Positions 2,404 through 41,425 of a stretch of DNA of 64,000 nucleotides are shown here, one piece after another; the first letter of the stretch is position 1, and the number at the start of each line of letters is the position of its first letter. The position numbers and the translations under genes are program-made. The notes under the pieces were generated by a model that was not told the origin of the DNA, ran no database searches, and saw nothing but the letters and a program-made list of their open reading frames with translations. Source of the DNA: an uncultured Planctomycetota bacterium (GTDB taxonomy: Bacteria; Planctomycetota; Planctomycetia; Isosphaerales; Isosphaeraceae); the NCBI GenBank assembly GCA_963823665.1, contig CAWGMQ010000004.1, positions 1,728,001 through 1,792,000 on the forward strand. The letters are read 5' to 3'.

Positions 2404-2532
2404 ATTAGCTTGCCTCCGAGATGTCAGCTTAGCATAATCGAGCCGGTTTGCCAATGGGCGGATAGGCTGGTGTCAAACGACAAATCGCCGATTCGTCGCG
2501 TGGGACGATCGACGGCGGGGCTCAGTCGCTGT

Positions 2533-2745
2533 TTATTGGTCTGGAATGCCGGTTAAAGCATCCTCGAGGATTTGGGGGGCGATCTGCATGGGGCTTACCT
2601 TGCGTCCGCTGGTGCTGCTCTGCTCGGCCAGGCGGATAAGCCGTTGTCTGGTGGCGTCGCTCATGGGCACCTTGGGATGCCGTACCCAGTTTGCGTCGGT
2701 TGGCCTGCCTGGGCGGATACCTTGTCCAGGCTCAAGGCCGGCTTG
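2533..2745 (-). pseudogene. 5'-truncated remnant of a small DNA-binding/antitoxin-like protein
   Basis: Open frame ...PGRPTDANWVRHPKVPMSDATRQRLIRLAEQSSTSGRKVSPMQIAPQILEDAL*, not in the ORF track; family recalled, not verified. Confidence 0.4.
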
Positions 2746-2753
2746 AATGGTTC

Positions 2754-3080
2754 TTATCCGGCTGTTATTTCCATGTGCCCCTGCGTCCGGGCACTGGCCT
2801 TGGACAGCTTGATCTGCACGTCATAGCCCAAGCGGGTGATGAAGCGGATCAGCCTGTCGGTCGAAAATCCATCGAAGCGGCCTCTGAGCAATTCGGAAAC
2901 CTTGGGCTGGCGGATGCCGAGCAGTTTGGCAGCTTGGGCCTGGGTAAGACGCCGTCGCTGGACAATCCCCAGAATCTCAGCGGCAAGCTGGGATTTAGCC
3001 ATATATTCGTCGGCGTTTTCAATCCCTAGGTCGGCAAATACATTGCCGCTGCTGTCGTGGACGATGTTGTCAGCGGTCAT
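2754..3080 (-). CDS. XRE-family HTH antitoxin (HTH_37-like)
   Basis: SSGNVFADLG...LTQAQAAKLLGIRQPKVSELLRG...FSTDRL signature. Confidence 0.85.
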   Translation of the reverse strand: MTADNIVHDSSGNVFADLGIENADEYMAKSQLAAEILGIVQRRRLTQAQAAKLLGIRQPKVSELLRGRFDGFSTDRLIRFITRLGYDVQIKLSKASARTQGHMEITAG

Positions 3081-3151
3081 GGTTTTCTGGCCTTCTGCTG
3101 GTTCTTGTGATGCTCGACGGCTGCGCTCAGGCGTTTCTCGATCAAGTCGAG
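3077..3151 (-). pseudogene. C-terminal remnant of a Gp49/RelE-like toxin
   Basis: LDLIEKRLSAAVEHHKNQQKARKP* ends in an ATGA overlap with the XRE gene, typical of Gp49-XRE pairs; 5' part missing. Confidence 0.55.
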
Positions 3152-3964: not shown

Positions 3965-4321
3965 ATGTCAGAGGTTTCAGACCGCCCTCCGGGGCGAGAC
4001 GTTCGCCTTGCGCGCACCGTAGACCAGCCACCCGGGTTTGGCCGAAATCGCCCGGTGGGCGGCACCCTCATTAGCAAATTAATCAACTTCGTGTTGGCGA
4101 GTTGGACAATCACTTCCCACGGGCATCATTTGCCCCCGCCAGGTGGCGGGTCGGCATCGGTCGAACCCGAGGCCAGCCGAAAGGGAAGAAATACGATTAT
4201 CTGCCTAGGAATCATTCTGGCATTTCTTGCGGCTCTTTTGATAAGTGGCTCCTTACGGCTGGGTGTTACCGTAGAGGTCGGCAATCAGGGTAAGGCCGTG
4301 CCAGGTGTAAACGGAAAGTAA
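3965..4321 (+). CDS. Hypothetical protein with one C-terminal TM helix
   Basis: ATG 3965 after GGGAA; hydrophobic IICLGIILAFLAALLISG; stop 3 nt before the sigma ATG; start uncertain. Confidence 0.5.
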   Translation: MSEVSDRPPGRDVRLARTVDQPPGFGRNRPVGGTLISKLINFVLASWTITSHGHHLPPPGGGSASVEPEASRKGRNTIICLGIILAFLAALLISGSLRLGVTVEVGNQGKAVPGVNGK

Positions 4322-4324
4322 ACG

Positions 4325-5182
4325 ATGACTCTTCGTCGGCTTGATCGCCGTGACGTCGATTTCTCGACTCCTTTGCAGATTTATCTGCACGATATTAATG
4401 ACACGCCATTGCTGTCGGCGCAGGAGGAACGCGCGCTTGCCGAGCGCGTGGCGGTGGGTGATCCCATTGCCCGCGAACACATGGTTAGAGCCAACTTGCG
4501 CCTCGTCGTCAATATCGCACGCGGCTATCTGGGCAAAGGTTTGAACTTGGAGGACCTTATCGAAGAAGGGAATTTGGGGTTGATGCGTGCTGTCGAAGGG
4601 TTCGATGGCATGATGGGGACTCGATTCAGGACCTACGCGATTTACTGGATCAAGCAGTCAATTCGCCGGGCGGTGATGAACACGGGGAAGCCGATCCGCC
4701 TGCCGGCGTACATGGTCAGCCTCCTTTCCAAGTGGCGGCGAGCCACGGGGGTGCTCACCGATCGACTCGGCCGGGCTCCCACGCATGACGAGGTCGGGAA
4801 AGCCCTGCGACTCTCCAAGAAGAAAATGGGAATTGTGGCCAAGGCAATCCGTGTCAACAACCTCACGCCCCACTCGGAAATCCTGGATGAGGACGGTCCC
4901 GCGCTCGACCGCGTCTTGACCGACGATCGCAGCAACAAGGGCCCTGAATCGAAGATGATCGAGGCCGACGACCTCGACCGCATCTTCCTGCACTTGGATG
5001 CCCTCGAGAGTCGTGAAGCCGCGGTCATTCGCATGCGGTTCGGCTTGGACTCTTACGAGCCGATGACCCTGCGCGAGGTCGGCGAGAACTTGGGCCTGAC
5101 TCGTGAAAGAGCTCGGCAGTTGGAGAGCCAAGCGTTGCAAAAGCTCATGAGCGCGCTGGCCGAAACGGGCGGGCGCATCTGA
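4325..5182 (+). CDS. RNA polymerase sigma-70 factor, RpoD/RpoS-like, lacking region 1.1
   Basis: Region 1.2 LQIYLHDI, ANLRLVVNIA, DLIEEGNLGLMRAVEGFD, region 4 TLREVGENLGLTRERARQLE. Confidence 0.95.
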   Translation: MTLRRLDRRDVDFSTPLQIYLHDINDTPLLSAQEERALAERVAVGDPIAREHMVRANLRLVVNIARGYLGKGLNLEDLIEEGNLGLMRAVEGFDGMMGTRFRTYAIYWIKQSIRRAVMNTGKPIRLPAYMVSLLSKWRRATGVLTDRLGRAPTHDEVGKALRLSKKKMGIVAKAIRVNNLTPHSEILDEDGPALDRVLTDDRSNKGPESKMIEADDLDRIFLHLDALESREAAVIRMRFGLDSYEPMTLREVGENLGLTRERARQLESQALQKLMSALAETGGRI

Positions 5183-5301
5183 ACATAGTCCAATATAGGT
5201 TACTTAATGCCTAGATGGACAATCGGCTTGCCTCGATATTCAACGAAAAAGACAAGTAGACAGCGACAGCGAAACAGACCGTTACTGAGGCAGTTGACGC
5301 T

Positions 5302-5802
5302 ATGGCAGACGACGAGTTATCTGAGCTGGCTGATTCGATACGTGATTCCTACGCGCGGCGTAGAGCCAAACATGATCGCCGCCGCCGCATCGACCCTACA
5401 ACCTTTGATAGAGAGTACACTGCCGAAGAGATGGAATTCATGCGGGCGATGCAGGCTTATAAACAAAGCAGCGGGCGCATGTTCCCAACCTGGTCGGAGG
5501 TGTTGAAGGTCTTGCGGAGCCTGGGTTATGAAAAGGTAGATCGTAGAGATGCTGACGGTGAAAGCGTCGTAGAATTTGTGCAGGCGATGCAGGCTTATAA
5601 ACAAAGCAGCGGGCGCATGTTCCCAACTTGGTCGGAGGTGTTGGAAGTCTTGCAAAATCTTGGTTATCAGAGAGCAGGCGGAGAAGCGCATAAGGATACG
5701 CAGTCCGCACGTAGCGCGTTAACGACAGCTACGAGCGAACCACATGCTGCACCGCGCACTGTCAACCGGGGTAATGTGATCGCTGAAGCGATTGGTACCT
5801 GA
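5302..5802 (+). CDS. Planctomycete-type small protein with a tandemly duplicated [24 protein letters not shown] domain
   Basis: [14 protein letters not shown] motif plus two copies of the domain, 46 aa apart. Confidence 0.75.
5445..5643 (+). repeat. 61-bp direct repeat within the CDS
   Basis: 5445-5505 vs 5583-5643, one mismatch. Confidence 0.95.
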
Positions 5803-5878
5803 GCACGCAGGCTAGGCTTTTGCAGCGTCGTCACGCACCTTGAGCTTAACCAGTTCAGCTTGTTTAGCTGTGCCCTAA

Positions 5879-5912
5879 ATAATGGGTAATAATCCCCTTT
5901 ATGTAACGCCAA
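5879..5912 (+). other. dif-like tyrosine-recombinase site A (arm X - 6 bp - arm Y)
   Basis: ATGGGTAATAA TCCCCT TTATGTAACGC(CAA); the arms recur at 12231-12244 and 13991-14004. Confidence 0.7.
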
Positions 5913-6172
5913 TCCGGGGCAGGGGTCAAGCGGCGGTCTGGGTTCGGCGAACCTGAAACCGTAGATTTGTGCTCGAGATGTTGTAGATTGATTGTTCCAC
6001 GTCCAAGGAGGGGCAGCGACAATGGCGATGCGAGAAGATGTCTGTGCGTACCGCGGCGATTACAGGCAAGCCGAACAAGAGCACGTAATTCCCCAGAGGT
6101 TCGCACGGGTTTGAACGGACGTACGCCGTCCTGATGATCAGCCAAGTCAAATTGAAGAGGAGTGGAATCGAG

Positions 6173-6377
6173 ATGGCACGCAGCGTTTCGACGCATCTCA
6201 TGTTCGAGGGAGTTGCCGAGGAGGCGATGAAGTTTTATGTCTCGCTCTTTCGACGGTCAGAGATCGTCAAGGTTGAGCGATACGGACCTGGCGAGCATGG
6301 GGCGGAGGGATCCGTCAAGGTCGCGACCTTTACTCTCTGTGGGCGAGAGTTCATGTGCATCGACAGCCCGATCAAGC
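6173..6377 (+). pseudogene. VOC/PhnB-like gene copy 1, 3'-truncated
   Basis: Near-identical to the first 68 codons of 16004-16504; similarity stops at ATCAAGC (6377). Confidence 0.85.
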
Positions 6378-6409
6378 CTCTCATTTCGGGCCACGATGTG
6401 AGAGGGGTG

Positions 6410-7291
6410 TTAACTTGGAATGGATAGCGTCGAAACAAAAGCGAGCAGCTCGGCCCATGCGTGATCGAATTCGATGAACTCGGTCGTAGTCTTCCGAATC
6501 TGCGCATCGTAAGTCGACGACGCCTTCTGTCTCACCTTCTCATCAAAGGCCGACTTCGTCGCGACAATTTCCCGAGCGGCGGACTTCTGCAGAAGGAAAG
6601 ATGAAACCTTGCCGAGGTCAATCAACGCCGAGTGCTTGCGAACCATTGAGGCAATATCGAAAACGTCTTGAGGGCGTGAACGATTCCGGGGAATCTGCTG
6701 AAGGAGAGCCCGAAGCTTTTCCGCGAGAATATCCTCGAGGGTGCAGACCCGAAGTGGAATCGATTCAGGACCGAGCTGCTCATCCCCGGTTTCGCACAGC
6801 ACGTCATTCAGGCTGATTTCGACTTCGACCACTTCAGAGAGCGTCTTTCCGGCTGAAAGCCGCTCGTCGATGTTTTGGAAGTATCTGTCGCCGGGGAGCT
6901 GATAGCAGACCTTGAGGTTGTAGGTTGGCCTGGTCTTATCGACACCAGGCGGATTTCGACGAATGCTCTGACACCGAGCCTTGACCTGATATCGCCGTTC
7001 TTCTGTCTTCAACGCAGTATCCATAAGCCCCTTGATAACTTCTGCACTGTCTGGGAAATCCTCGACGGCGCTGAAATCGAGGTCGAGCGTGCTCCGCATG
7101 TTGCCGTGAATGAAGCGAAGGGCGTTTCCGCCCTTAAACGCGACGCGAGAAACGAACGCAGCCGATGAGGACATCGACACCAGAATCACGAACTGGACGA
7201 AGCGACGCCTCGCTTCCTCCGCGGTCGTGCCATGCAGCTTTCGCCAAGCATCGAGCTCGGCAATTGAGGTTGGATAGCTTCCTGCTTCCAA
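6410..7291 (-). CDS. abiEii: AbiEii/AbiGii nucleotidyltransferase toxin (type IV TA)
   Basis: FKGGNAL...RSTLDLDFS, AEKLRALL, RPQDVFD motifs. Confidence 0.9.
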   Translation of the reverse strand: MEAGSYPTSIAELDAWRKLHGTTAEEARRRFVQFVILVSMSSSAAFVSRVAFKGGNALRFIHGNMRSTLDLDFSAVEDFPDSAEVIKGLMDTALKTEERRYQVKARCQSIRRNPPGVDKTRPTYNLKVCYQLPGDRYFQNIDERLSAGKTLSEVVEVEISLNDVLCETGDEQLGPESIPLRVCTLEDILAEKLRALLQQIPRNRSRPQDVFDIASMVRKHSALIDLGKVSSFLLQKSAAREIVATKSAFDEKVRQKASSTYDAQIRKTTTEFIEFDHAWAELLAFVSTLSIPS

Positions 7292-7298
7292 GCGGCCT

Positions 7299-8198
7299 CT
7301 AATTCTCTTCCAAGATGGCCAAAACGGACTGCGGAACGTTTAGCGAAAGATTCCACTCCGCCGAGAACGTCGTCGCATACGGGTTACGTGCGACCAACTT
7401 TACCGACCCTCCGCGTTGCAGTCCATGCCGCCATTTGGCGAGCAGAGGATGAGTCTTCCCTAACTTTTCAAGGAGAAAGCCCACCCGCTGTCGGAGCACC
7501 TTGTGTCCATAATCGTCTGCGTAGGAGACGAGCTTGGCGACGTCGACGTTTTCGGCTGACCGCCACGCTTGAAGCACCTTCTCAATGCCGCCCGACTTTT
7601 CAGGCATCCGAATCGCGTCAAGTAACGTTCGTTCGACGTCGGTGACATAAATCGGAATGCCGAAACTGTAACCGACGATAACGCCGAAGCCAGGCTCCGA
7701 CGAAAGCTGTGTCCAGATTACCCGGACACCTCGCACCGTCAGGGGACGCTTCGCCGTGAGAAGCGAGCTCGCTTCAGACCAGTCTTCTGGTGTCGTGCCA
7801 AGCGGTAACCGGTCGGCGTTTTCTGCTCGTTCGCTCGCAATCGGGTAGACCTCTGTCGGAACGAGGTCTGTGATGCCGTGGTAAGCCATCGCGGTAAGGA
7901 AGCCGAAGACCGCCCAAGGATTTGCTTCCTGAATGATTTGCTCTTCGGAGACCTCAAGCAAATTCGCGTAGGCTACGTTCACCACATAAACGCCGGAAAC
8001 GCCTTCAACCGACACGACCTCTCCTCGTCGGACGAGCTCCTTGCGGATGGCCTGAGCCTTCTCTTCATCCGGCAGAGGGGAGTTTTCAGCTCTGGCTATC
8101 TGGCGAGCAATTACAAGAATTCGCCAGTCGGAAATGACTCGACGTCGAGTCTCTGCAAGCACTCGGAGGATGTTGGACGCAAATGTCTTAGGGCCCAT
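7299..8198 (-). CDS. abiEi: AbiEi-family antitoxin/transcriptional regulator
   Basis: TAMAYHGITD, VTDVERTLLD, RQRVGFLLE, WNLSLN motifs; directly upstream of abiEii. Confidence 0.85.
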   Translation of the reverse strand: MGPKTFASNILRVLAETRRRVISDWRILVIARQIARAENSPLPDEEKAQAIRKELVRRGEVVSVEGVSGVYVVNVAYANLLEVSEEQIIQEANPWAVFGFLTAMAYHGITDLVPTEVYPIASERAENADRLPLGTTPEDWSEASSLLTAKRPLTVRGVRVIWTQLSSEPGFGVIVGYSFGIPIYVTDVERTLLDAIRMPEKSGGIEKVLQAWRSAENVDVAKLVSYADDYGHKVLRQRVGFLLEKLGKTHPLLAKWRHGLQRGGSVKLVARNPYATTFSAEWNLSLNVPQSVLAILEEN

Positions 8199-8210
8199 AG
8201 AAAGAGTCGA

Positions 8211-8266
8211 GCATCGCGAGTAAGATGTCCTGAGGACATCTTACTCGCGATGCAACTCAAAGTCAA
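8211..8266 (-). promoter_or_regulatory. abiE promoter with a perfect 43-bp palindromic operator
   Basis: TTGACT-17-TAAGAT (8266-8238); GCATCGCGAGTAAGATGTCCT-G-AGGACATCTTACTCGCGATGC (8211-8253) overlaps the -10. Confidence 0.85.
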
Positions 8267-8462
8267 GGATAAAATGAAAATCTTGTCAAGATTAGGAATG
8301 GTTGTAATGATCGCCGAAACCGAAGAAGACCTGGAGCATTTCGCCGCGATGGGCGAATGCGAATTCAGTAATGGCGAGTGGGCTCGGCTGGATGCCAAGA
8401 GGCGGCCCGTGACGGCGATTAATCAGGGCTGCCAGGTCGCATCAGTCAATGCATAATCATTG

Positions 8463-8954
8463 CTAGAGTTGCGGTGGCTGCGTCTCGATCATGAGGTGTT
8501 CCACGGGCCACGTCATACCGTCACGGGGGCCAGCCATGCGGACAAGGCCCACCGTTACTTTCCCCGCACCTTTTTCGCCTTCCCATTGCGAAAAACTTTG
8601 GATCTGGCGACTGATGCCGTCGCCGACAGCCTGCTGGACCAGCCGTAGCAAGGCACTTTTCCAGTTCTCGCCAGATAGGCTCTCACCTGTCGTAAGCACC
8701 TCGCTGCTCGGTTTGCGGATCGTCATCGTGAAAATGGCAGAGTCCTCCGTTAATCGAAGCCTAAGGGATCGGGCGATCTTGTCCGCGGAATCGAGTTTCA
8801 GTCCGCGATCGCCGTCAAGAAATCGTTGCACAATGGTGTGGCTCAGCTCGGCGTCCTTAGCGACCTTATAAGCCGTAAGCCCCCGCTGGCGAATAACTTC
8901 ACGAAGCTGCTCCGAAATTGTCAGAGCGGGGGTAGAGGTCTTTTCGGAAATCAT
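8463..8954 (-). CDS. XRE-like HTH protein
   Basis: ISEQLREVIRQRGLTAYKVAKDAELSHTIVQRFLDGDRGLKLDSADKI. Confidence 0.75.
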   Translation of the reverse strand: MISEKTSTPALTISEQLREVIRQRGLTAYKVAKDAELSHTIVQRFLDGDRGLKLDSADKIARSLRLRLTEDSAIFTMTIRKPSSEVLTTGESLSGENWKSALLRLVQQAVGDGISRQIQSFSQWEGEKGAGKVTVGLVRMAGPRDGMTWPVEHLMIETQPPQL

Positions 8955-8997
8955 AAATACCTCAATTTGTCGTGATTCTCGCCATTACCACACAGTT

Positions 8998-9025
8998 ATT
9001 ATACGCCAATTGTTCTACGAGTCAA
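8998..9025 (-). promoter_or_regulatory. Sigma70 promoter of the HTH gene
   Basis: TTGACT-16 nt-TATAAT. Confidence 0.65.
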
Positions 9026-9090
9026 ATGGCACATGTGACAATTGACGCCGCTTTCGCGGGCAATCCAGGATAACGGGTGAAATGCAGAGG

Positions 9091-9159
9091 CTTGTATCCG
9101 GAGTGCCGCAGAAAGTGGCTCGCCTTCACGAAGGGCGGTGTCGGCGCTTCGGATACAAG
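9091..9159 (+). repeat. Terminal fold-back hairpin of the IS91-like element
   Basis: CTTGTATCCGGAGTGCCG (9091-9108) pairs with CGGCGCTTCGGATACAAG (9142-9159) with two G-T wobbles; inner hairpin CGCCTT..AAGGGCG. Confidence 0.9.
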
Positions 9160-9185
9160 GGATTGGACTGAACCGCGGGCAGGCG

Positions 9186-9207
9186 GGCGACTATGGAGAT
9201 TCAATCG
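9186..9207 (-). other. oriIS-like rolling-circle origin motif
   Basis: CGATTGAATCTCCATAG downstream of tnp resembles the recalled IS91/ISCR oriIS (TTGAACTTCCTATA). Confidence 0.45.
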
Positions 9208-9432
9208 CGGGCTTTCCAGCAGGTGAGCGCGTTGTCGGCCGGGAGCGGTGATTCGATCGCTGGAAAGCCGGTTGGTGTGCCGTAGCCGGTGCTCGATTTA
9301 GGCCCAACCTGGGCTTTCTTCAGGCCTATGGACACGAAATCCTGCTCGCCGAACAGGGAATCCACGGTCACCCTCGAAGGGCGGTGTTGACGATGGCGAG
9401 TCATCAGGTTGCTCCCGTCCATCTGGAAGGGT

Positions 9433-10668
9433 TTAGGAAGTATCAAATGCCACCGCCTCGGGTGTGGGACCGCAGTGAGGTCCTTCACTCGGGTCGGCCG
9501 GAAGCTCCCCGAGAATCGCGACGATGAACATATAGCCCTTGCCGCAAGCAGGGCAGACGTGCATCGCGTGTTCTCCTTCGGCAGCGACCTGCTCTTCTGG
9601 AGCCGGCTCAGGCGCCCCCGGTTCCAAGGAGGGCTCGGTCTCCTCGAGTAGCTCGCGACACAGTTCGAGATTCTCCCGGCACACCCGGTTAGCGAGGAAG
9701 CCATAATGCCGGATTCGGACGAATCCGGCGGGTAACACATGCAGGAGGAATCGGCGGATGAATTCGATCGCTTTGAGCGCCATCGTCTTCTGCTTTCCCT
9801 CGTGCGCGTAATCCTTCCAGTGGAACGTAACCTTGCCGTCCTCAACCGTGATCAGCCGGTGATTGCTGATCGCGACCCGGTGGGAGTACCGGGCCAGGTA
9901 TTTCAGCACCTGTTCCGGGCCACCAAAGGGAGGCTTGGCGTAGACAACCCATTCGGTCTTGGCACTGGCAGTGAGCCGGCGCTGAAACTCGGCCGGGTCG
10001 GCCAACGAAGCGAGCGTGCCGTGCAAGGAAAGCTTGCCCTGATCGAAGGCGAACTTAAGCAGAGCGAGAAACTTCCCCCGAAAGAGGCGGCTGAGGACAC
10101 GGACCGGTAGAAAGAAGCCGGGTTTGCAAGGGACCCATCGCGCGCGATCAGGCGACAGCCCGCCACCCGGCACAACGCAGTGGACGTGCGGGTGATGTTG
10201 CAGGTTCTGGCCCCAAGTGTGGAGGACGGCCAAGAAGCCGATCTCAGCCCCGAGGTGCTTCGGGTCGGCGGCGATCTGCTGCAAGGTCTCGGCGGCGCAT
10301 TTGAACAGGAGACCGTAGACCACCCGCTGATTCTGCAAGGCAATCGGGTCGAGCGCCGCCGGAAGCGTAAATACGACGTGATGATATTCGACCGGCAGCA
10401 ATTCCGCTTGCCGGGCCTCCATCCACTCCGCGGCGGCGGTTGCCTGGCACTTCGGACAGTGCCGATTGCGGCATGAGTTGTAGGCGATCTGCTGATGGCC
10501 GCATTGATCACATTCCTCGATGTGTCCGCCTAGGGCAGCAGTCCGACAAGCTGCGATGTCGCGCAGAGCGCGACGCTGCTCGGACGAGAGCGTGTCGCCA
10601 TATCGGTCGAGAAAAGCATCACCATAGTCGCGAACGACCTCGGCCACTTCGAGCCGAGGTCGGTTCAT
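9433..10668 (-). CDS. IS91-family transposase (Zn-binding + Y2 HUH domain)
   Basis: YNSCRNRHCPKC, HVVFTLP, LHTWG...HPHVHC (HUH), YLARY (Y2), RIRHYG. Confidence 0.95.
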   Translation of the reverse strand: MNRPRLEVAEVVRDYGDAFLDRYGDTLSSEQRRALRDIAACRTAALGGHIEECDQCGHQQIAYNSCRNRHCPKCQATAAAEWMEARQAELLPVEYHHVVFTLPAALDPIALQNQRVVYGLLFKCAAETLQQIAADPKHLGAEIGFLAVLHTWGQNLQHHPHVHCVVPGGGLSPDRARWVPCKPGFFLPVRVLSRLFRGKFLALLKFAFDQGKLSLHGTLASLADPAEFQRRLTASAKTEWVVYAKPPFGGPEQVLKYLARYSHRVAISNHRLITVEDGKVTFHWKDYAHEGKQKTMALKAIEFIRRFLLHVLPAGFVRIRHYGFLANRVCRENLELCRELLEETEPSLEPGAPEPAPEEQVAAEGEHAMHVCPACGKGYMFIVAILGELPADPSEGPHCGPTPEAVAFDTS

Positions 10669-11496
10669 GGCCGGGACTCACCGGGTAGGGGACCGATCCG
10701 GTCGAGGGGGCTGCGCGTTGCCTCGACAACGCCTGGCGACACGTGGGTATAAATGGCGGTTGTCTCGAGCTTGCGATGGCCGAGAAGCACCTGAATTGTC
10801 CGGAGGTTGGTGCCGGATTCGAGCAAATGGGTCGCGAAACTATGCCGCAGAGTATGCACCGTAACGTGCTTGCCCAAGCCGGCGTGTTGCGCGGCGCGGA
10901 CGCAGATTTTGTGCACGGCTTTTCCGGTGATGGGTTTGTCTGGGACGTCCCCGGGGAAAAGCCAGTCGGTCGGCCGAACGATTTTCCAGTATTCACGGAG
11001 CAGCGCGAGGAGACGAGGCGAGAGCATGACGTAGCGGTCCCGACGTCCTTTGGCTTGTCGGATGCGGATGACCATGCGCTTGCTGTCGAGGTCATCAACT
11101 CGAAGGCCGATGACCTCAGAGAGCCGTAAACCCGCGGTGCTTGATGTCGATCAGCCCTGCGAAGAACGTGGCGACTTCGTCTGAGCTGAGAACGACAGGG
11201 AGGCGCTTGGGTTGCTTTGGGAAGGGAATGCGATCCAGGGCATCCTTTCGACCGAGGGTGACCTCGTAAAGGAACCGCAACGCGGCGAGGGTCTGGTTGT
11301 AGACGCTCCAGGAGACCTTCTTCTCTTGAATGAGGTGGAGCAGGTAAGATCGAACCCCCTTTCTGCCGAGGTGCTCGGGCGACCGCCTGTAATGTCCTGC
11401 GAAGAATCTGACACGCGAAACGTAGGCGTTGATGGTCCGTGTTGAGAGATTCTTGAGCTTCATGTCCTCGATCATTTGGCGTCGTAGCGGTGTCAT
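10665..11496 (-). pseudogene. Tyrosine recombinase (N-terminal SAM-like domain) broken by a short internal deletion at ~11135
   Basis: N-half MTPLRRQMIEDMKL...KHR joins out of frame to AGLRLSEVIGL...KGRRDR...HTLRHSFATH...LLGH...TAIYTH; the usual short linker is missing. Confidence 0.85.
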
Positions 11497-11646
11497 GATG
11501 TGCTCCCGTGTTGAGGTAAAAAGGGGAAGCGTTTATCATGGCTAGGTAGAAGCGCTGAGCGTGTGCGTGTGTCACGCAACCGGGCGCCTGTGACGCGGCA
11601 AGCCGGGCTTGTGTGTTAAAGAATCAAGGACGCGGCGGACAGGCGA

Positions 11647-12086
11647 TGGGCAGCGAAGCGATCGTCCAAAACTTGATCGGTGTCTTCCCTCGAAGGATAG
11701 TGGAGGGTCCAGTAACCCCACATGATTGCCCTGAGTGTCTGGAGTTGCGCGGGCAACTCACCGGGACCACTTGGCCTGATGTCCCGCTGGAGTTCATTCG
11801 CGACCATCCTGACGTATTACCGCTGCTGTCGCCGGAAGCCTATCTGACCTTCCTACCCGCGTGGCTACACCAACGTGTCCTCGAGCCTGAGGGCGAAGTG
11901 GCTTCCATGCTCCTCGTGAACCTCGCATGTGATTCCGATCCGACAGGGTTTGCATTCGAGCAACGCGACGCCATCATCGAAGTGGCCCGATTCATCGTGC
12001 GGAACAACGGCTGGGGGCCGGAAGACCCTGAAAACGCGAAGTCCCTCGTCGCGATCGAACGGGCATGGGCGGACGTCATAGCCTAA
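11647..12086 (+). CDS. Hypothetical passenger protein (DUF6714-like)
   Basis: HDCPEC...WPDVP...LLSPEAYLTFLPAWL; lies between the recombinase and the right end of the element. Confidence 0.6.
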
Positions 12087-12210
12087 ACCCCGGGGCGGAG
12101 AATGCGCGAGTGTAACCGACGCATTTGGCGTGGACCCTGAGCGTGTGATCCCGACATACCGCTGATAGACCCGTAGCAGGAAGGCCAACGCTTCAAAGGT
12201 CTACCGCGCA

Positions 12211-12246
12211 GCGGTTTAGTCCAATGTCCTTTATTACCCGTTATCC
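12211..12246 (+). other. Right junction of the IS91-like element, dif-like site C
   Basis: GTTTAGTCCAA TGTCCT TTATTACCCGT; outer arm matches site A arm X (13/14). Confidence 0.7.
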
Positions 12247-12386
12247 GCAGGCTGGACTCAAATCGCGCTTTGCCTGTAACGGCTGATTTATAAATCACCG
12301 CTTACGATCTTGGTGTCACTTGACGGTGATTCGTTTCGCTTCCGAATTCATCGGGGGCCACCCATCCGGCATACCGAGGGCTCGAT

Positions 12387-12995
12387 TTACTCTGGCTGTG
12401 CCGGGACCGATGGGCTCGAGGCGGGCGTGACGGGTTCCAGGTCTAACAGCTCCGGATCATCAAGTACCGCCGCCGGTCTGTCCGCTTCCACTGCCTCGAT
12501 TAGGCGACCATCTTTTATTACCATCTGAACCGGTGGAGGGCTGCTCGGATAATACAACCTCGCGATCCGTGCGACCAAGGACATACTCAGCGCTGACACG
12601 ATGACCGCGACGCCAATCCAGCCCGCCCTCGCGACCATCCCTGGACGGTCACGCCTGTACCTCGATCTCAGCCCTGGGATGAATCGGATTGCCAGGTAGG
12701 TGGAGGCGTAGAGGCCGCTGGCCACCACCAAGATTAAGGCCGTCGCCGCTCGCCAGAGCATCTCCCGGGCAACGCGAGCATCGTCGCTTGCCGCAATTAG
12801 ACGCTGCTCCGCGACATCGTAGGCCCCAATGGCTCGCAGTTCGGGTACCTCCGCCAGCCAGCGGGGAGCGCGCGTGAAGAGGAAGATGGAGGTCTCCAGA
12901 AAGCGGATGCTCGTGTAGAAGTAGAAGGCCAACGCAATCGCAGCCACTGCGAGCATTAATTGTTGCGCGGTGAAACGGACGCGGGGCAGGCTCAT
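12387..12995 (-). CDS. Hypothetical membrane protein
   Basis: MSLPRVRFTAQQLMLAVAAIA N-terminus typical of Isosphaeraceae; three hydrophobic segments. Confidence 0.65.
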   Translation of the reverse strand: MSLPRVRFTAQQLMLAVAAIALAFYFYTSIRFLETSIFLFTRAPRWLAEVPELRAIGAYDVAEQRLIAASDDARVAREMLWRAATALILVVASGLYASTYLAIRFIPGLRSRYRRDRPGMVARAGWIGVAVIVSALSMSLVARIARLYYPSSPPPVQMVIKDGRLIEAVEADRPAAVLDDPELLDLEPVTPASSPSVPAQPE

Positions 12996-13122
12996 GAGTC
13001 GATCGACCTCTTGTGCTGGAGACGCTGCATTCGGCATGCTCGCATGTGCGGCTGATCTCTAGATGACCCGTTACACCACGGATTTGACGTAAGTTGTTAA
13101 TCGTCGTAGAAAGTTCCATTCC

Positions 13123-13971
13123 TCGGCGTTTAATCATCCGCCAGGCGTCGATGCGGTGCATAGGCCGGTCCGTTAAGCGACGGTGGCGGTCGATGGAGCG
13201 GAAGAGGGGGGTTTTCTTCTCTCCGGCAATGCCTGCTGCCGCGATGTAGGCATCCAGATAATCCTCGGCGTTGTGGTGGGCGGGCACCTCGTGCCGTTTG
13301 CCGCCTTTCTCGTGCAAGCGGAACCATGCCCGCCGGCCCTCGGTGTAATAATCCTCTACTTTCATGCCGAGGGCGGCGGTGACGCGGGCGAAGCTGAACA
13401 CCATTACGGCGATCAGTGCCCGGTCACGTAAGCCCACCAGGCTGGGCGGCCGGTTGTCTTCCTCGCCTTCTTTCGGCTCCGGGCCGATCTTGAGGGGGAT
13501 GCTGTCGAACAACTCTCTCGCCTCGTCGGCTTTGAGGACCGGGGTTTTGCCCTTCTTCACGACGTGCTTAGCGGCCCGCACGGCGGCGGCCGGGTTGGCG
13601 TCGATCACCTGCCCGGTAATCAGCCAGTCGAACAGCATCCGTAAGGACGCAAGGTGCTGCTTGACGGTTGGCGTGCTGGCCCGAGTTTCCTTGCCGGTCA
13701 GCGTAAGCTCGGCCAGGTAGGCTGATACGTGGTAGCTCTTGATGGCGGATAGGCTCAGGCCCTTGGCGTGCGACCAGGCGAAGAATCGCATGGTGTTGCG
13801 GTAATAGGCCGCCCGGGTGTTGGCGTTGGGGATAGTGTCGGTGAAGAAGGTGAAAAACCGCTCGGCGGCTTTGTCGCCCTGGTCGGCGATGACGGCGGGC
13901 AGGGTGAAGCTGCTCCGGTGATTGGTTAACGCTCGTTGATGATTGGACGCTCTTACCAGCTCCGTACCCAT
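13123..13971 (-). pseudogene. Tyrosine recombinase/integrase, 3'-truncated
   Basis: NTRAAY, KQHLASLRMLFDWL, RDRALI...FARV, HEKGGK; homology ends at WRMIKRR, before HxxR and the catalytic Tyr; the ORF continues into unrelated sequence. Confidence 0.85.
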
Positions 13972-13990
13972 GATCAGTAGCTCCCTCCAG

Positions 13991-14021
13991 TTGGCGTAAC
14001 ATAAGAATTTTTATGTCTCGC
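13991..14021 (-). other. dif-like site B upstream of the integrase, at the junction with VOC copy 2
   Basis: ACATAA-AAATTC-TTATGTTACGCCAA; spacer and outer arm are VOC coding sequence (cf. 16060-16071). Confidence 0.75.
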
Positions 14022-14353
14022 TGTTTCGAGGGTCAGAGATCATCAAGATTGAGCGATACGGACCTGGCGAGCATGGGGCGGAGGGGACCGTCAGGGTCGC
14101 TACCTTTACTCTCTTTGGACGAGAGTTCATGTGCATCGACTACCCGATCAAGCATGAGTCTACCTTTACGCCATCGATGTCTGCCTTTGACGAATGCGAG
14201 AGCGACGCGGAGATCGAAGATGTGTTCAGCCGGCTTTCGGTCGGTGGGCAAGGATTGATGCCGCTCGGCAATTATGGGTTCAGCACAAAATTCGGGTGGG
14301 TGAAGGACCGGTTTGGTCCGTCGTGGCAGCGTAACCTTTCGAGAACGCTGTAA
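14005..14353 (+). pseudogene. VOC/PhnB-like gene copy 2, 5'-truncated and frameshifted
   Basis: Aligns to 16060-16392 from codon ~20; ends NLSRTL*. Confidence 0.85.
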
Positions 14354-14434: not shown

Positions 14435-15565
14435 TTAGTGATTTCGAGTTTTGGAGGTTGCATCGCGCTTACCTTCGAGCAACTTGCGTGTTCGTTCCAA
14501 TTCGCTGGCCAGCGTTTCCTCGCTTGGCAGGGCTGTGAGATACTCTGCGGCGAGGATCGTGCTCGAGATGCCCTCCAGGGCGTAACGGGCGACGCCTGCG
14601 CGGTGCTCGGCGCAGAGGATCAGGCCAACCGGCGGATTCTCGTCGGTTCGGGTCCAATGATGGCGAGCGTAGTTGAGGTACAGGTTCATCTGACCGATAT
14701 CGCCGGCGGTGATGGCGGCGAGTTTTAGATCAATGAGGATCAGGCAGCGGAGTCGACGGTGAAAGAACACCAGGTCGATGCGGAACCACTCATCATCGAC
14801 GCGCAGCCGCTTTTGGCGGCCGACGAAGGTGAAATCATCGCCGAGCTCGAGCAGGAACGTTTCCAGATGGCGGATCAGCGCCTCTTCAAGCTCGTTCTCA
14901 GAATACTCGTCCTTCAGGTTGAGGAATTCCAGGACGAACGGGTCCTTGATCTCCTCCTCGGGCGTGAGAGTGTCTTCGGGCCGGGCTTTCTGCCCTTTGG
15001 TGAGCGTCGCAGCCTTGTTGCGGGATAACATGGTACGCTCGTAAAACTGTGTGCTGATCTGGCGGTCGAGTTGCCGCACGTTCCACCCGGCGCGCACGGC
15101 CTCTGTTTCATAGAATGAGCGTGCGTCGGGCTTTTTGACCGACATCAGGCGGACATAGTGAGACCAGGAAAGCAGAAAGTTTTTCCCCAGTTCGACCAGG
15201 GTCGTTTCGCCATACCCGGATTTTGCAGACGCTGTCTGCAGAATTCGCGGGTAGGCCAGGTAAAATTGACGCATCTGGTAGAGGTTCCGGTGGCCGAACC
15301 CGCGGCCGCACCGGCGAGTGAGGTCTTCGGACATGCGGGTGACCAGTTGCTCGCCATAGCCAGCACGATGCTTTCCGCGTTGCTCCTCCTCGACGATCCG
15401 ACGGCCGATTTCCCAGTAAGTGGCGGTCATGATGCTGTTGACGGAACGGGCCGCGGCGTGACGGGCCGACTCCAGGACTTGAATTACTCCGGCCAGAACA
15501 GCTTCATAGGTGTCGTCGCCGGTCTTCGCAGGCATGCGCTTAGGGCGGTTGCGTTTCTTTGCCAT
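14435..15565 (-). CDS. DUF1016/YhcG-family PDDEXK nuclease-domain protein
   Basis: YWEIGRRIVEEEQ, LSWSHY, IKDPFVLEFL, FLLELG..F.FVGRQ, IDLVFFHRRLRCLILIDLK, GQMNLY. Confidence 0.92.
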   Translation of the reverse strand: MAKKRNRPKRMPAKTGDDTYEAVLAGVIQVLESARHAAARSVNSIMTATYWEIGRRIVEEEQRGKHRAGYGEQLVTRMSEDLTRRCGRGFGHRNLYQMRQFYLAYPRILQTASAKSGYGETTLVELGKNFLLSWSHYVRLMSVKKPDARSFYETEAVRAGWNVRQLDRQISTQFYERTMLSRNKAATLTKGQKARPEDTLTPEEEIKDPFVLEFLNLKDEYSENELEEALIRHLETFLLELGDDFTFVGRQKRLRVDDEWFRIDLVFFHRRLRCLILIDLKLAAITAGDIGQMNLYLNYARHHWTRTDENPPVGLILCAEHRAGVARYALEGISSTILAAEYLTALPSEETLASELERTRKLLEGKRDATSKTRNH

Positions 15566-16003
15566 GCTTCCGTATAGCATGTTCGAGGCAGGGGGCAAAC
15601 CGGAATTCCCCGGGCGGATCAAGATTCGACCAGGCGGAGGCCGAGGAGTTCTTTCAACGAATCGCGGGAGGCGAGGACGTCGCGCGCGTCGGCGGTGAGC
15701 GAGAAGCGTTCGCGAAGCTGCTCGATCTAACGGTCGGTGACGGCGGGGGTGGCGATGATCAGATCAGAGTAGCCGGATTGCAAGTGCGTAGATGGTATGC
15801 AGGCTTTCCGTCGCCGAGGACACCGGAGGCGGTGGTGCGGAGCCTGCGGTGGAATTCGCGCTTCAGGCGGAACAGCATTTCCAGCCCAGGTTGCACGTAT
15901 CCCCGATGGCTGCGTTGCGTGGGCTCGATTGCTCCAATACGCTCGAGGGATTTACCGTTGTCCCGGCGAGCGGCCAAGTCAATCGAAGAGGAGTGGAATC
16001 ACG

Positions 16004-16504
16004 ATGGCACGCAGCGTTTCGACGCATCTCATGTTCGAGGGAGTTGCCGAAGAGGCGATGAATTTTTATGTCTCGCTGTTTCGAGGGTCAGAGATCATCA
16101 AGGTTGAGCGATATGGAGCTGGCGAGCATGGGGCGAAGGGGACCCTCAGGGTAGCGACCTTTACGCTCTGTGGGCGAGAGTTCATGTGCATCGACAGCCC
16201 GATCAAGCATGAGTTTACGTTTACGCCATCGATATCTATCTTTGTCGAATGCGAGAGCGACGCGGAAATCGAAGACGTGTTCGGCCGGCTTTCGGCCGGT
16301 GGGCAAGTATTGATGCCGCTTGACAATTACTGGTTCAGCACAAAATTCGGCTGGGTGAAGGATCGGTTTGGGCCATCGTGGCAGCTTAACCTTGCGGTGG
16401 TTCACCAGGCCGCCGCTCGAGAAACGCCCCACCAGGCCGCGACCAAGCCGATGAAAAGCAGGCCCGCGAAGGTCGCAACCGCGACTGACAAGACGGCGTT
16501 CTGA
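16004..16504 (+). CDS. VOC/PhnB (3-demethylubiquinone-9 3-methyltransferase-like) family protein, copy 3
   Basis: THLMFEG.AEEAMNFY, FTPSIS, LMPLDNY, FGWVKDRFG.SWQL; C-terminal read-through overlaps the convergent gene. Confidence 0.88.
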   Translation: MARSVSTHLMFEGVAEEAMNFYVSLFRGSEIIKVERYGAGEHGAKGTLRVATFTLCGREFMCIDSPIKHEFTFTPSISIFVECESDAEIEDVFGRLSAGGQVLMPLDNYWFSTKFGWVKDRFGPSWQLNLAVVHQAAARETPHQAATKPMKSRPAKVATATDKTAF

Positions 16505-18191: not shown

Positions 18192-18259
18192 CGCGGGGGC
18201 GAATGGGGGGTTTTCCTTAATCCTCGCGGGGTACGGGTGCGCAGCGAATTCTCGAGAAG

Positions 18260-19354
18260 CTACTCTTCGCGTTTCGACTGCTTCGACGCAAGTCTTACCA
18301 AGCCGAGCGTGGCCCAGGAGCTGGCGGCGCAGGTGATTGGGGTCAGGAGGGTCGCGCTGCCGGGCTCGCCATTCGGGGTCGAGCGAGAGATCATCGGCCA
18401 ACTGCCGTCTGGTGTTTGCGTGGCGACCAGGAAGTTGATCGCTCGCTTGATGCCCGGTTTTTCGGCGGTGTAACCGGCTAGCGACAAGACGTACAAAGTT
18501 TGGCCGGTGGCGAAGGCGTCGCTCTTTGGGTCAGGGACGGTTTGGCTCCAGCCACCATCGGCGCGTTGGAGAGCGAGCAACTCGTCTATCGTCGTTTGGA
18601 GGGAATCGCGCGGCTTGCCAGAGCGCACTCCCATCAGCACCTTCAGGGCCTTGTCTTGATGGAGGGCAGAGGGCTTTGCGGCGTCGAGCCAGGCGATCGC
18701 TTTTGAGAGCGCGGCACGGTGGGATTCGGGCGCGTCGGGGCCTGTTTCGCCTTCGAGCGCCATGATGATCCAGGCGGCGTCGGTTGTCTGGCTTTCGTTG
18801 ATCGGCGGCCGCCTCAAAGTGGGAAAGAACTCCCAGGAACCGTCTGGTTGCTGCTTCTTGACGATTTCTTCCGCGATCAGACTCAGGCTTTGCTTTTCCC
18901 CTTTCTCCAGTGAGGGCAACGAACGAGCAGCGACGGCCAGGAACGGGAGCCCGATGTTCAGCCCGCGACCCTGAGGGCGCGGGTCGGGTGGATCGGCCGG
19001 GTTCGGAAAGATCTTCGAGGCCAGCAACCTGTCCTTACTGCCCAGCAAGGACTCGGTCACTTCGGTCACGAATTTCTTGTTGATCGGGTACCCCTGCCGT
19101 TCGGCCTCGCTCAACGCCCAAATCGGCATTGGCACATGATGGCAGGCGGCGCATTTGCGCGTTTTTAGCCAGGCGGCACTCTCGGTCTGGATGTAGCCGA
19201 TGGCGCGCTCGATCGTCTGCTCGACCTGCTGTCGCGTTGCGGAGGGAACGGAAGGCGGTTCGTCTGCCAGGGCCACATTGGAAAGGCAGAGGCTCAGCAA
19301 GAACACTGTTAGCGAACATCGGCGAGCCATGGACCGGTCCAGTGTCAGAGCCAT
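18260..19354 (-). CDS. Secreted prenyltransferase/squalene-oxidase-repeat protein with a CxxCH motif
   Basis: Signal peptide, KCAACHH, QW repeats QQPDGSW, LQRADGGW, TQTPDGSW. Confidence 0.8.
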   Translation of the reverse strand: MALTLDRSMARRCSLTVFLLSLCLSNVALADEPPSVPSATRQQVEQTIERAIGYIQTESAAWLKTRKCAACHHVPMPIWALSEAERQGYPINKKFVTEVTESLLGSKDRLLASKIFPNPADPPDPRPQGRGLNIGLPFLAVAARSLPSLEKGEKQSLSLIAEEIVKKQQPDGSWEFFPTLRRPPINESQTTDAAWIIMALEGETGPDAPESHRAALSKAIAWLDAAKPSALHQDKALKVLMGVRSGKPRDSLQTTIDELLALQRADGGWSQTVPDPKSDAFATGQTLYVLSLAGYTAEKPGIKRAINFLVATQTPDGSWPMISRSTPNGEPGSATLLTPITCAASSWATLGLVRLASKQSKREE

Positions 19355-41107: not shown

Positions 41108-41425
41108 GCCTTCTCCCGGCCAACGCCTGGCGACCAGATAAAGTTTTGCTTGAGGAACCCACCGAGGCGTGCGAGCGACCAACTCTTGACGGGCATTCAA
41201 CCAACCGAGACAACCACCATGCACGACACGACGATTGCACCGCCATGAGTTAAAGCATAACGAATCTTATAGTACTCCGATGCCAAAGGGAAGCGGCAAC
41301 CTCGCCACGTCGAGCGAATTTGCCGAAATCGCGCCGAGATCGCCTCTTAGGCGTGCAGGCGCAAAGATCCAGGCATTCATGATGGCGGCCATGGACAGAC
41401 GCTTGATCATGTCCAGGACTTCGAC

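Follow-up and report, generated by a model that had tools for sequence, protein, structure and literature searches.

The question raised by this locus is why two closely similar 14-bp arms, each beside a 6-bp core and an imperfect partner arm, stand 8.1 kb apart in a mosaic chromosomal island. The island lies in a stretch of 64,000 nucleotides (hereafter, the window) from an uncultured planctomycete of the Isosphaeraceae (assembly GCA_963823665.1, contig CAWGMQ010000004.1, positions 1,728,001-1,792,000). A first-pass annotation described two arms in it, X and Y, joined as X-core-Y in a site at 5879-5912 (site A) and recurring as X' and Y' further right, and proposed that they partition the island into shuffled modules. 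The copies of X and Y and the cores TCCCCT, AAATTC and AGGACA were confirmed at the positions given in Table 1. We propose that the Y arms are probably fossil junctions at the putative cognate site of a plasmid-type Xer-like integrase, of which a truncated gene starts at 13971, and that they are most simply explained as the ends of a decayed integrated circular element.

The genome behind the window (16.46 Mb in 12 contigs, the scope of all genome-wide arm searches) was searched with both arms. At ≤1 mismatch, Y was found in two places only, both in the window and 8.1 kb apart (reversed-pattern control, 3), and X in two window places plus one 1-mismatch match on another contig (control, 2), which sits in an unrelated AT-rich repeat. 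The first-pass annotation had proposed a check on whether the motifs are frequent genome-wide, and neither X nor Y is. That AT-rich 14-mers simply recurred by chance because the island is AT-richer is an extremely improbable explanation of the locus. It draws on the degenerate copies, which score at chance level, and on X, for which about one match is expected per genome and one was seen elsewhere. It is ruled out for Y, because exact Y occurs twice in the genome with both copies within 8.1 kb, the Y arms are identical to the arms of a relative's site, and the adjoining 24-bp flank is conserved too. The degenerate copies that had been counted as further half-sites are weak when scored against the original patterns: X at ≤3 mismatches, which takes in the copy at 9070, gave 3 matches against 1.03 expected (3 was reached in 5 of 100 shuffles), and Y, whose copy at 8996 has 2 mismatches, gave 4 against 2.29 (4 was reached in 18 of 100). 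The copy at 13061-13074 has 4 mismatches and lies outside the X search at ≤3; chance possibly suffices for it and for the copy at 9070. The bare pattern ATAA-N6-TTAT occurs three times in the window (5879, 13991 and 41247), and the island contains two complete sites of this kind only (5879-5912 and 13991-14024), 8.1 kb apart. Separately, the occurrence at 41247-41280 (GAGTTAAAGCATAA CGAATC TTATAGTACTCCGA) is intergenic, 6/14 symmetric and has no integrase nearby; it is probably due to chance.

The relatives of the integrase indicate to which enzyme the Y arms would belong. Eighty related loci (53-90% identity, many phyla) were collected, 76 of them with at least 200 bp of upstream sequence, and a site was scored where a WWAA-N6-TTWW inverted repeat with at least 9/14 arm matches lay within about 600 bp upstream. 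Such a 14-6-14 inverted repeat (...ATAA-N6-TTAT...) was present upstream of the integrase in 44/76 loci, but in 0/79 downstream and 0/61 far-upstream control regions; a looser palindrome score (≥11/14) gave 34/76 upstream, 5/76 downstream and 6/57 far upstream. The median distance from site start to protein match was 129.5 nt. Among the 44 sites there are 40 distinct left arms, each paired with a complementary partner, and since the arms differ between loci yet stay complementary to their partners, they covary. The core AGGACG was found in 28 of the 44 sites, in either orientation. This comparison of upstream regions, which the first-pass annotation had suggested, supports its proposal that the integrase family is the cognate enzyme, and also its description of the arms as dif-like, ATAA-N6-TTAT, and of an Xer-like tyrosine recombinase. 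The 14-6-14 palindrome is hence supported as the putative cognate core site of the family. Two inverted arms around a 6-8 bp centre, the form of a simple tyrosine-recombinase core site, exist in the relatives, whereas the window has two hybrid halves.

Individual relatives connect the window to this site. The locus L092, from an Isosphaeraceae metagenome-assembled genome (MAG) whose integrase is 90% identical, carries a perfect palindrome, TTGGCGTAACATAA AGAGAG TTATGTTACGCCAA, made of the window's Y arms: arm P (13991-14004) is identical to an arm of L092 and of a further locus, L100, and the Y arm at 5899-5912 is 13/14 identical to the L092 arms. The window's arm D and the reverse complement of arm P agree at 13/14 positions, which is the symmetry of intact sites. 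L100 has the same arms as L092, a core AGGGCG, the flank CCGCTTGACC, and an integrase leader and gene start like those of the window. The intact paralogue in the same genome, L007, has TTGGAGAAACATAA AGGCCG TTATGTTTCCCCAA, a 13/14 palindrome of Y-like arms whose proximal arm ends 73 nt upstream of the ATG. The family also occurs on plasmids: 462 plasmid records hold an integrase homologue (156 of them covering at least 80% of the query), and in all four plasmid loci inspected an ATAA-N6-TTAT site precedes the integrase gene or, where this gene closes a short operon, the operon. One of these elements, pSINAC03, has the site TTGGTATCCGATAA AGGGGA TTATCGGATACCAA, and the conserved flank F is present there too. 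In one Isosphaeraceae MAG, the locus L022 contains a hybrid site (2880-2940: a non-palindromic left arm, AGGGAG and arm P), and a second integrase copy of the same MAG, L023 (~2288), has an intact palindrome about 700 bp upstream; both site states thus occur in nature.

The two window junctions were then read against these intact sites. Read on the minus strand, the proximal junction consists of ACAGCGAGACATAA-AAATTC-TTATGTTACGCCAA, and the integrase comes next. Position 14004, where arm P has its inner end, is exactly where L100 and L022 start to align with the window at the DNA level, and the adjoining base, 14005, opens both the core and the stretch in which the PhnB-like copy B is homologous to the intact copy C. 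The core GAATTT is identical to the corresponding hexamer of copy C, which holds an unoccupied look-alike (...GCGAT GAATTT TTATGTCTCGCTGT), indicating that the PhnB gene supplied the core and one arm of this junction. The pseudo-arm matches Y' as an inverted repeat at 9/14 positions and starts with 8 bases that it shares with the arm of the family member L070. Cre-type simple recombinases integrate at secondary pseudo-lox sites, and the window is similar in that a chromosomal look-alike of one arm plus core appears to have been used, a likeness of mechanism only.

The distal junction, which is the reverse complement of site A, reads CCGCTTGACCCCTGCCCCGGA-TTGGCGTTACATAA-AGGGGA-TTATTACCCATTAT. 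Window positions 5936-5896 (flank, arm D and 3 core bases) align to positions 1331-1371 of L007 at 87.8% identity, and the F flank matches L100 and pSINAC03 as well; this conserved flank identifies the Y arm of site A as arm D and not arm P. The place of arm P is occupied by the reverse complement of X, whose inverted-repeat match to Y is 6/14. The match to L007 gives out at 5896, within the core. Both recombinant junctions are broken at an edge of the central region (14004/14005 and 5896-5898). Site A had been taken for the circular joint of the segment 14004-12231; it is a recombinant hybrid junction, but not that joint, which is ruled out because its Y arm bears the D-side flank. The minus-strand order is P-integrase ... 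flank-D, with integrase and flank both inside, as produced by integration of a site-bearing circle, and the order and orientation of F-D and P-integrase rule out an inversion or an insertion into a resident site.

The integrase itself is 82% identical to the intact 347-residue paralogue L007 (residues 14-316; contig C4, 565 kb). Its DNA homology to 6/6 relatives stops at 13124, and protein similarity fades at residue ~291 to 316. It lacks the HxxR and Tyr region, whose residues H295, R298 and Y330 do not vary across the family alignment. L007 has the full R-H-R-Y catalytic set; the window gene does not, and its 3' end was found nowhere else in the 64 kb. The gene is hence predicted to be a dead fossil without its catalytic C-terminus, and both junctions would be inert unless the 82%-identical paralogue acts in trans.

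From these features, the following history is proposed. A circular element carrying the palindromic 14-6-14 site and the integrase would have integrated into the chromosome, splitting one site into the halves D and P, with P joined to the look-alike inside a PhnB-like gene. The stretch 5899-14004 would be the decayed body of this element, into which the IS91-like element, the AbiE module and a PhnB fragment would later have moved, rearranging it, and at least one further recombination or deletion would have swapped the expected PhnB 5' flank for X. More than one event is needed because the cores (AGGGGA and AAATTC) and the outer flanks misfit a single one.

Several observations weigh against this history. 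The cores differ, one being of the family type and the other coming from the target, and the distal outer flank consists of X and the sigma-factor module instead of the PhnB 5' part. None of the four PhnB-like places in the genome is a solitary 5' fragment that stops at the site. Copy A as the lost 5' half of copy B was rejected, as it runs past its own intact pseudo-site (6229-6248) to 6384; the two copies also differ at several positions in their ~155-bp overlap, as judged by eye from the alignment. The proposed element has no replication or transfer genes, it holds DNA of chromosomal type (PhnB copy A and the AbiE module common to the related genome G035), and X' (12231) lies inside it unexplained. 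PhnB-like genes adjoin none of about 85 related loci, so that PhnB would be a one-off target, and in L022, the one relative with a hybrid site that was searched, no partner half-site turned up in its own genome at ≤2 mismatches. Separately, an empty target site was looked for in 60 family genomes, where only the sigma gene of 4300-5898 has homologues and the X region has none.

Since the site is located in the leader of the integrase operon, it might be an operator or promoter that serves only autoregulation, and the Y copies would then be promoter fragments spread by rearrangement that is not site-specific. In close relatives a TTGAC box does lie 10-13 nt outside arm D (5/44 sites), and the 8996 copy coincides with an 11/12 sigma-70-like promoter. 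A simple promoter scan, however, calls none at the L007 site or site A, the P half has no promoter, both window breaks lie at the edges of the 6-bp spacer as strand exchange predicts, and site and gene are arranged as at the att site of IntA, which is a proven one. We consider the operator account very unlikely. A promoter split by integration was also weighed and set aside as weak, on the same absence of a promoter call at L007 and site A and the same scarcity of the TTGAC flank.

Table 1. Features of the island, with positions in the window.
Feature	Position	Strand	Remark
X arm ATAAYGGGTAATAA (ATAATGGGTAATAA)	5879-5892	+	replaces integrase-proximal arm at distal junction; non-family arm
Core TCCCCT (AGGGGA in integrase orientation)	5893-5898	+	6 bp; purine-rich type as in family sites
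Y arm TTATGTWACGCCAA	5899-5912	+	reverse complement of integrase-distal arm D TTGGCGTTACATAA
Conserved flank F, CCGCTTGACCCCTGCCCCGGA-like	5913-5936	-	outside arm D in relatives
PhnB-like copy A	6014-6384	+	upstream region and 5' part; cut at 6384 by AbiE module
AbiEii/AbiEi toxin-antitoxin module	6385-8301	-	cargo with own edges; Pfam
Putative third relic half-site	8996-9009	+	without partner arm
Degenerate X	9070-9083	+	3 mismatches; chance level
IS91-family Y2 transposase	9433-10668	-	single copy in genome
Integron/XerA-like integrase	10619-11575	-	frameshifted; adjoins IS91-family transposase
X' arm ATAACGGGTAATAA	12231-12244	-	followed by AGGACA; no recognisable partner arm
Integrase pseudogene, Xer-like tyrosine recombinase	13030-13971	-	3'-truncated; Pfam PF00589 and PF02899
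Degenerate X	13061-13074	-	4 mismatches; in decayed 3' remnant of integrase frame
Y' arm, integrase-proximal arm P TTATGTTACGCCAA	13991-14004	-	
Core GAATTT (AAATTC on minus strand)	14005-14010	+	6 bp; donated by PhnB-like target gene
PhnB-like (PF06983) copy B	14005-14353	+	3' fragment starting at core
Pseudo-arm TTATGTCTCGCTGT	14011-14024	+	within PhnB-like coding sequence
PhnB-like copy C	16004-16504	+	intact; unoccupied pseudo-site (core 16060-16065, arm 16066-16079)

The remaining arms and the mosaic of the island bear on the proposal with which the first-pass annotation began, namely a pdif-like array whose sigma, toxin-antitoxin (TA), defence, IS91 and integrase modules would be delimited by X and Y half-sites and shuffled by the 13971 family or the host XerC/D. 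Its arm X stands apart from the family. X as a family arm was rejected, as the fetched loci, related and other, gave one 2-mismatch match over 585,401 bases and X is absent beside the 80 relatives; the proposed half-site family thus stands for Y and falls for X. X and X' are nevertheless 13/14 identical, inverted, 6.3 kb apart and nearly absent elsewhere in the genome, which suits an array; their flanks have nothing in common. By our own base-composition estimate, a second X copy in the window has a chance of about 0.004, and the two are hence probably related by descent. The AGGACA adjoining X' matches the consensus core AGGACG at 5/6 positions, a further point for the array, and X may be an arm from a family member outside the sample, or else a look-alike in a target.

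The 8996-9009 copy, which lies upstream of a helix-turn-helix (HTH) gene, may lend the array a third half-site. Its reverse complement, TTGGCGTATAATAA, is 13/14 identical to the commonest family arm, TTGGCGTATCATAA, and TTGACT lies 10 nt outside the arm, as in L100. The copy overlaps a strong sigma-70-like promoter before the HTH gene (TTGACT, 16 nt, TATAAT; 11/12). On these matches it is a possible third relic half-site.

The dif-like architecture ATAA-N6-TTAT and the mosaic character of the region also suit an array. In G035, a genome of the same genus (16.1 Mb), synteny runs from window position 15890 rightwards and a single PhnB gene is syntenic with copy C; the conserved flanks enclose a stretch of about 32 kb here and of about 9.5 kb in G035. 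The edges within this stretch, however, lie mostly away from the sites. The AbiE module, the only one with an independent second context, recurs in G035 as a 91.6% identical block in different surroundings, with edges at 6385 and 8301 that are not bounded by X or Y. Mapped breakpoints away from X/Y sites are 2488, 2743-2752, 3150, 6014, 6384/6385, 8301 and 13124; from 6014 on, copy A is 90.7% identical to a copy at C4:1713 kb, 15 kb upstream of the window. The claim that the sites fall at module edges therefore stands for 14004/14005 (arm 13991-14004) and 5896-5936, the only independently supported edges at sites, and fails at 6014, 6384/6385, 8301 and 13124. The IS91-like element and the stretch 11560-13130 had no second copy in the comparison.

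As for complete sites, the island has two, and the arms at 8996, 9070, 12231 and 13061 are single and without partners. The modules are not each enclosed by two complete dif-like sites, none was found elsewhere with the same site borders (AbiE in G035 included), the genome has no further site copies, and the local integrase is inactive. Module bounding by sites could accordingly not be upheld. Likewise, no trace of host Xer use was seen: the host does have XerD-like genes (312 bits, separate from the family), with nothing that links them to these sites, and AACATAA-N6-TTATGTT (≤1 mismatch) and exact CATAA-N6-TTATG each occur at only three places in the genome, every one beside a tyrosine-recombinase paralogue. 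Taken together, a pdif-like array is an unlikely description of the island.

A broader reading assumes phylum-spanning modules of site and recombinase, uncharacterised as far as can be said with no literature search aimed at them, whose repeated recombination with gene-internal look-alikes built the island. The module would be a 14-6-14 palindrome with AGGACG core, about 130 bp upstream of an Xer-like integrase, with arms that co-vary with the enzyme. This reading relies on Y, Y', the 8996 relic and the X/X' pair beside family-type cores, and seems doubtful to us; its proposed range, over plasmids and chromosomes of Planctomycetota, Acidobacteriota, Verrucomicrobiota, Pseudomonadota and others, is put forward just as tentatively. 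The decayed integrated element remains the preferred reading.

Among known systems, the IntA recombinase of Rhizobium etli provides the closest layout. It recombines 23-bp palindromic att sites, forming cointegrates and resolving replicons (PMC4928290). IntA (attA-attD, p42a/p42d) is, like the present family, a plasmid-borne simple tyrosine recombinase with a palindromic site upstream of its own gene. On p42a we located this att site, with the 8-bp arms TCCGATAA / TTATCGGA, some 115 bp ahead of the integrase gene. Its inner arm bases are the same as those of the pSINAC03 site, whereas its central region is 7 bp instead of 6 bp, and IntA acts in both directions, whereas any activity of the present family is predicted. 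IntA and the family share 24% identity over 263 aligned residues (pairwise E 2e-5), and tblastn of p42a positions 1-50000 gave no match to the family at E 1e-3; at this identity IntA belongs to a different subfamily, and the likeness is one of working mode and not of membership.

The family also resembles Xer/dif, XerS/difSL and XerH/difH in having two inverted arms around a 6-bp centre, and the xerS-difSL pair in placing site and gene next to each other as one module (PMC5357621). Unlike in Xer/dif, the family arms are 14 bp, nearly perfectly palindromic and variable from element to element. XerD is the closest NCBIfam model and gives the best solved-structure match (1a0p, E 6e-9), but the family protein scores far below the cut-offs: 108.6 bits against 329.6 for TIGR02225 (XerD) and 85.2 against 335.15 for TIGR02224 (XerC). 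Against TIGR02249 (integron integrase IntI) it scores 32.8, with a cut-off of 265. As the family is multi-copy and borne on plasmids and islands, it is not a chromosome-dimer resolution locus. Like the window, the pdif modules of Acinetobacter plasmids combine dif-like sites with accessory genes such as toxin-antitoxin genes in mosaic DNA (PMC6449649, PMC13141974). Each pdif module lies between two complete XerC/XerD sites and recurs in different contexts. The window differs from them in having two hybrid sites and lone arms, an element-encoded recombinase and no module recurring with these borders.

Some further observations concern the neighbourhoods of the integrases. None of the HTH gene, the membrane protein gene, ORF 11613 and AbiEi is conserved beside the integrase in about 85 loci, and a YhcG nuclease lies near it in two of them (L021 and L100). 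At the L007 locus (C4:563525-567442), integrase and site have a DNA methyltransferase gene on one side and an N6-methylase-like gene on the other; the first ~900 nt of the methyltransferase gene look AT-rich and the last ~400 nt GC-rich, as judged by eye. The surroundings are those of a defence island, and the end of the methyltransferase gene was possibly swapped by recombination. A distant paralogue of the same genome (L013, C5:881666-884685; 28% identity, 526 residues) has GGAACATAA AGCAGA TTATGTTCC at 1494-1527 of its locus, about 830 bp upstream of the integrase, with two apparent small toxin-antitoxin-type ORFs in between, again judged by eye.

Other observations were made on the island itself. 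PhnB-like genes (PF06983) are found in four copies within ~31 kb, including C4:1713232-1713665, and two of them are fragments, whereas G035 has one; the copies are a local segmental expansion of the variable region. The motif [TG]GAATGG[TA][TA] (TGAATGGTT-type) occurs only four times in the 64 kb, at 2744, 6417 and 8295 (+) and at 13114 (-). Its count is about that of chance, yet no occurrence is more than ~30 bp away from a homology breakpoint, the breakpoints being the 10-bp crossover at 2743-2752, the two ends of the AbiE module and the point of integrase truncation (13124). The motif may point to a second recombination system. A repeated unit at 2488-3150 contains an XRE/HigA-like gene on the minus strand and has 3 further copies in the 19 kb left of the window; further coordinates of the unit are 2578-2823, 13677-13904 and 14743-15179 in locus L117, and 14477-14741 and 18210-18617 in locus L112. 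In G035 this unit is split around the AbiE module, a circular permutation with direct AACCATTCAA / ATCATTCAA repeats, a pattern such as another integrating circle would leave. Just upstream of the AbiEi start (8198), positions 8211-8253 form a perfect 21-bp inverted repeat around a single spacer nucleotide; it contains AGGACA/TGTCCT and is likely the AbiEi operator. Contig C5 has a copy of the island sigma-70 paralogue at 89% identity, and the ORF downstream of the island paralogue (5302-5802) contains a 96-nt direct repeat at 5434-5667 with 138-nt spacing and 89% identity. The integron/XerA-like integrase is split between the frames 10665-11075 and 11116-11496, which indicates a frameshift.

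The locus itself is fairly ordinary mobile-DNA debris, probably a decayed mobile element of ordinary kind. What it offers is a candidate 34-bp cognate site for a widespread, unnamed group of Xer-like integrases (462 plasmid records and 360 genome loci), together with an apparent natural example of such a site recombining with a gene-internal look-alike. The palindrome can be used in annotation to tell intact, plasmid-like copies from integrated ones, and the co-varying arms around a constant AGGACG core suggest orthogonal recombinase/site pairs for tool builders. If repeated recombination with gene-internal look-alikes did build the island, it would be a chromosomal counterpart of dif-module shuffling, carried out by element-encoded enzymes and not by the host Xer.

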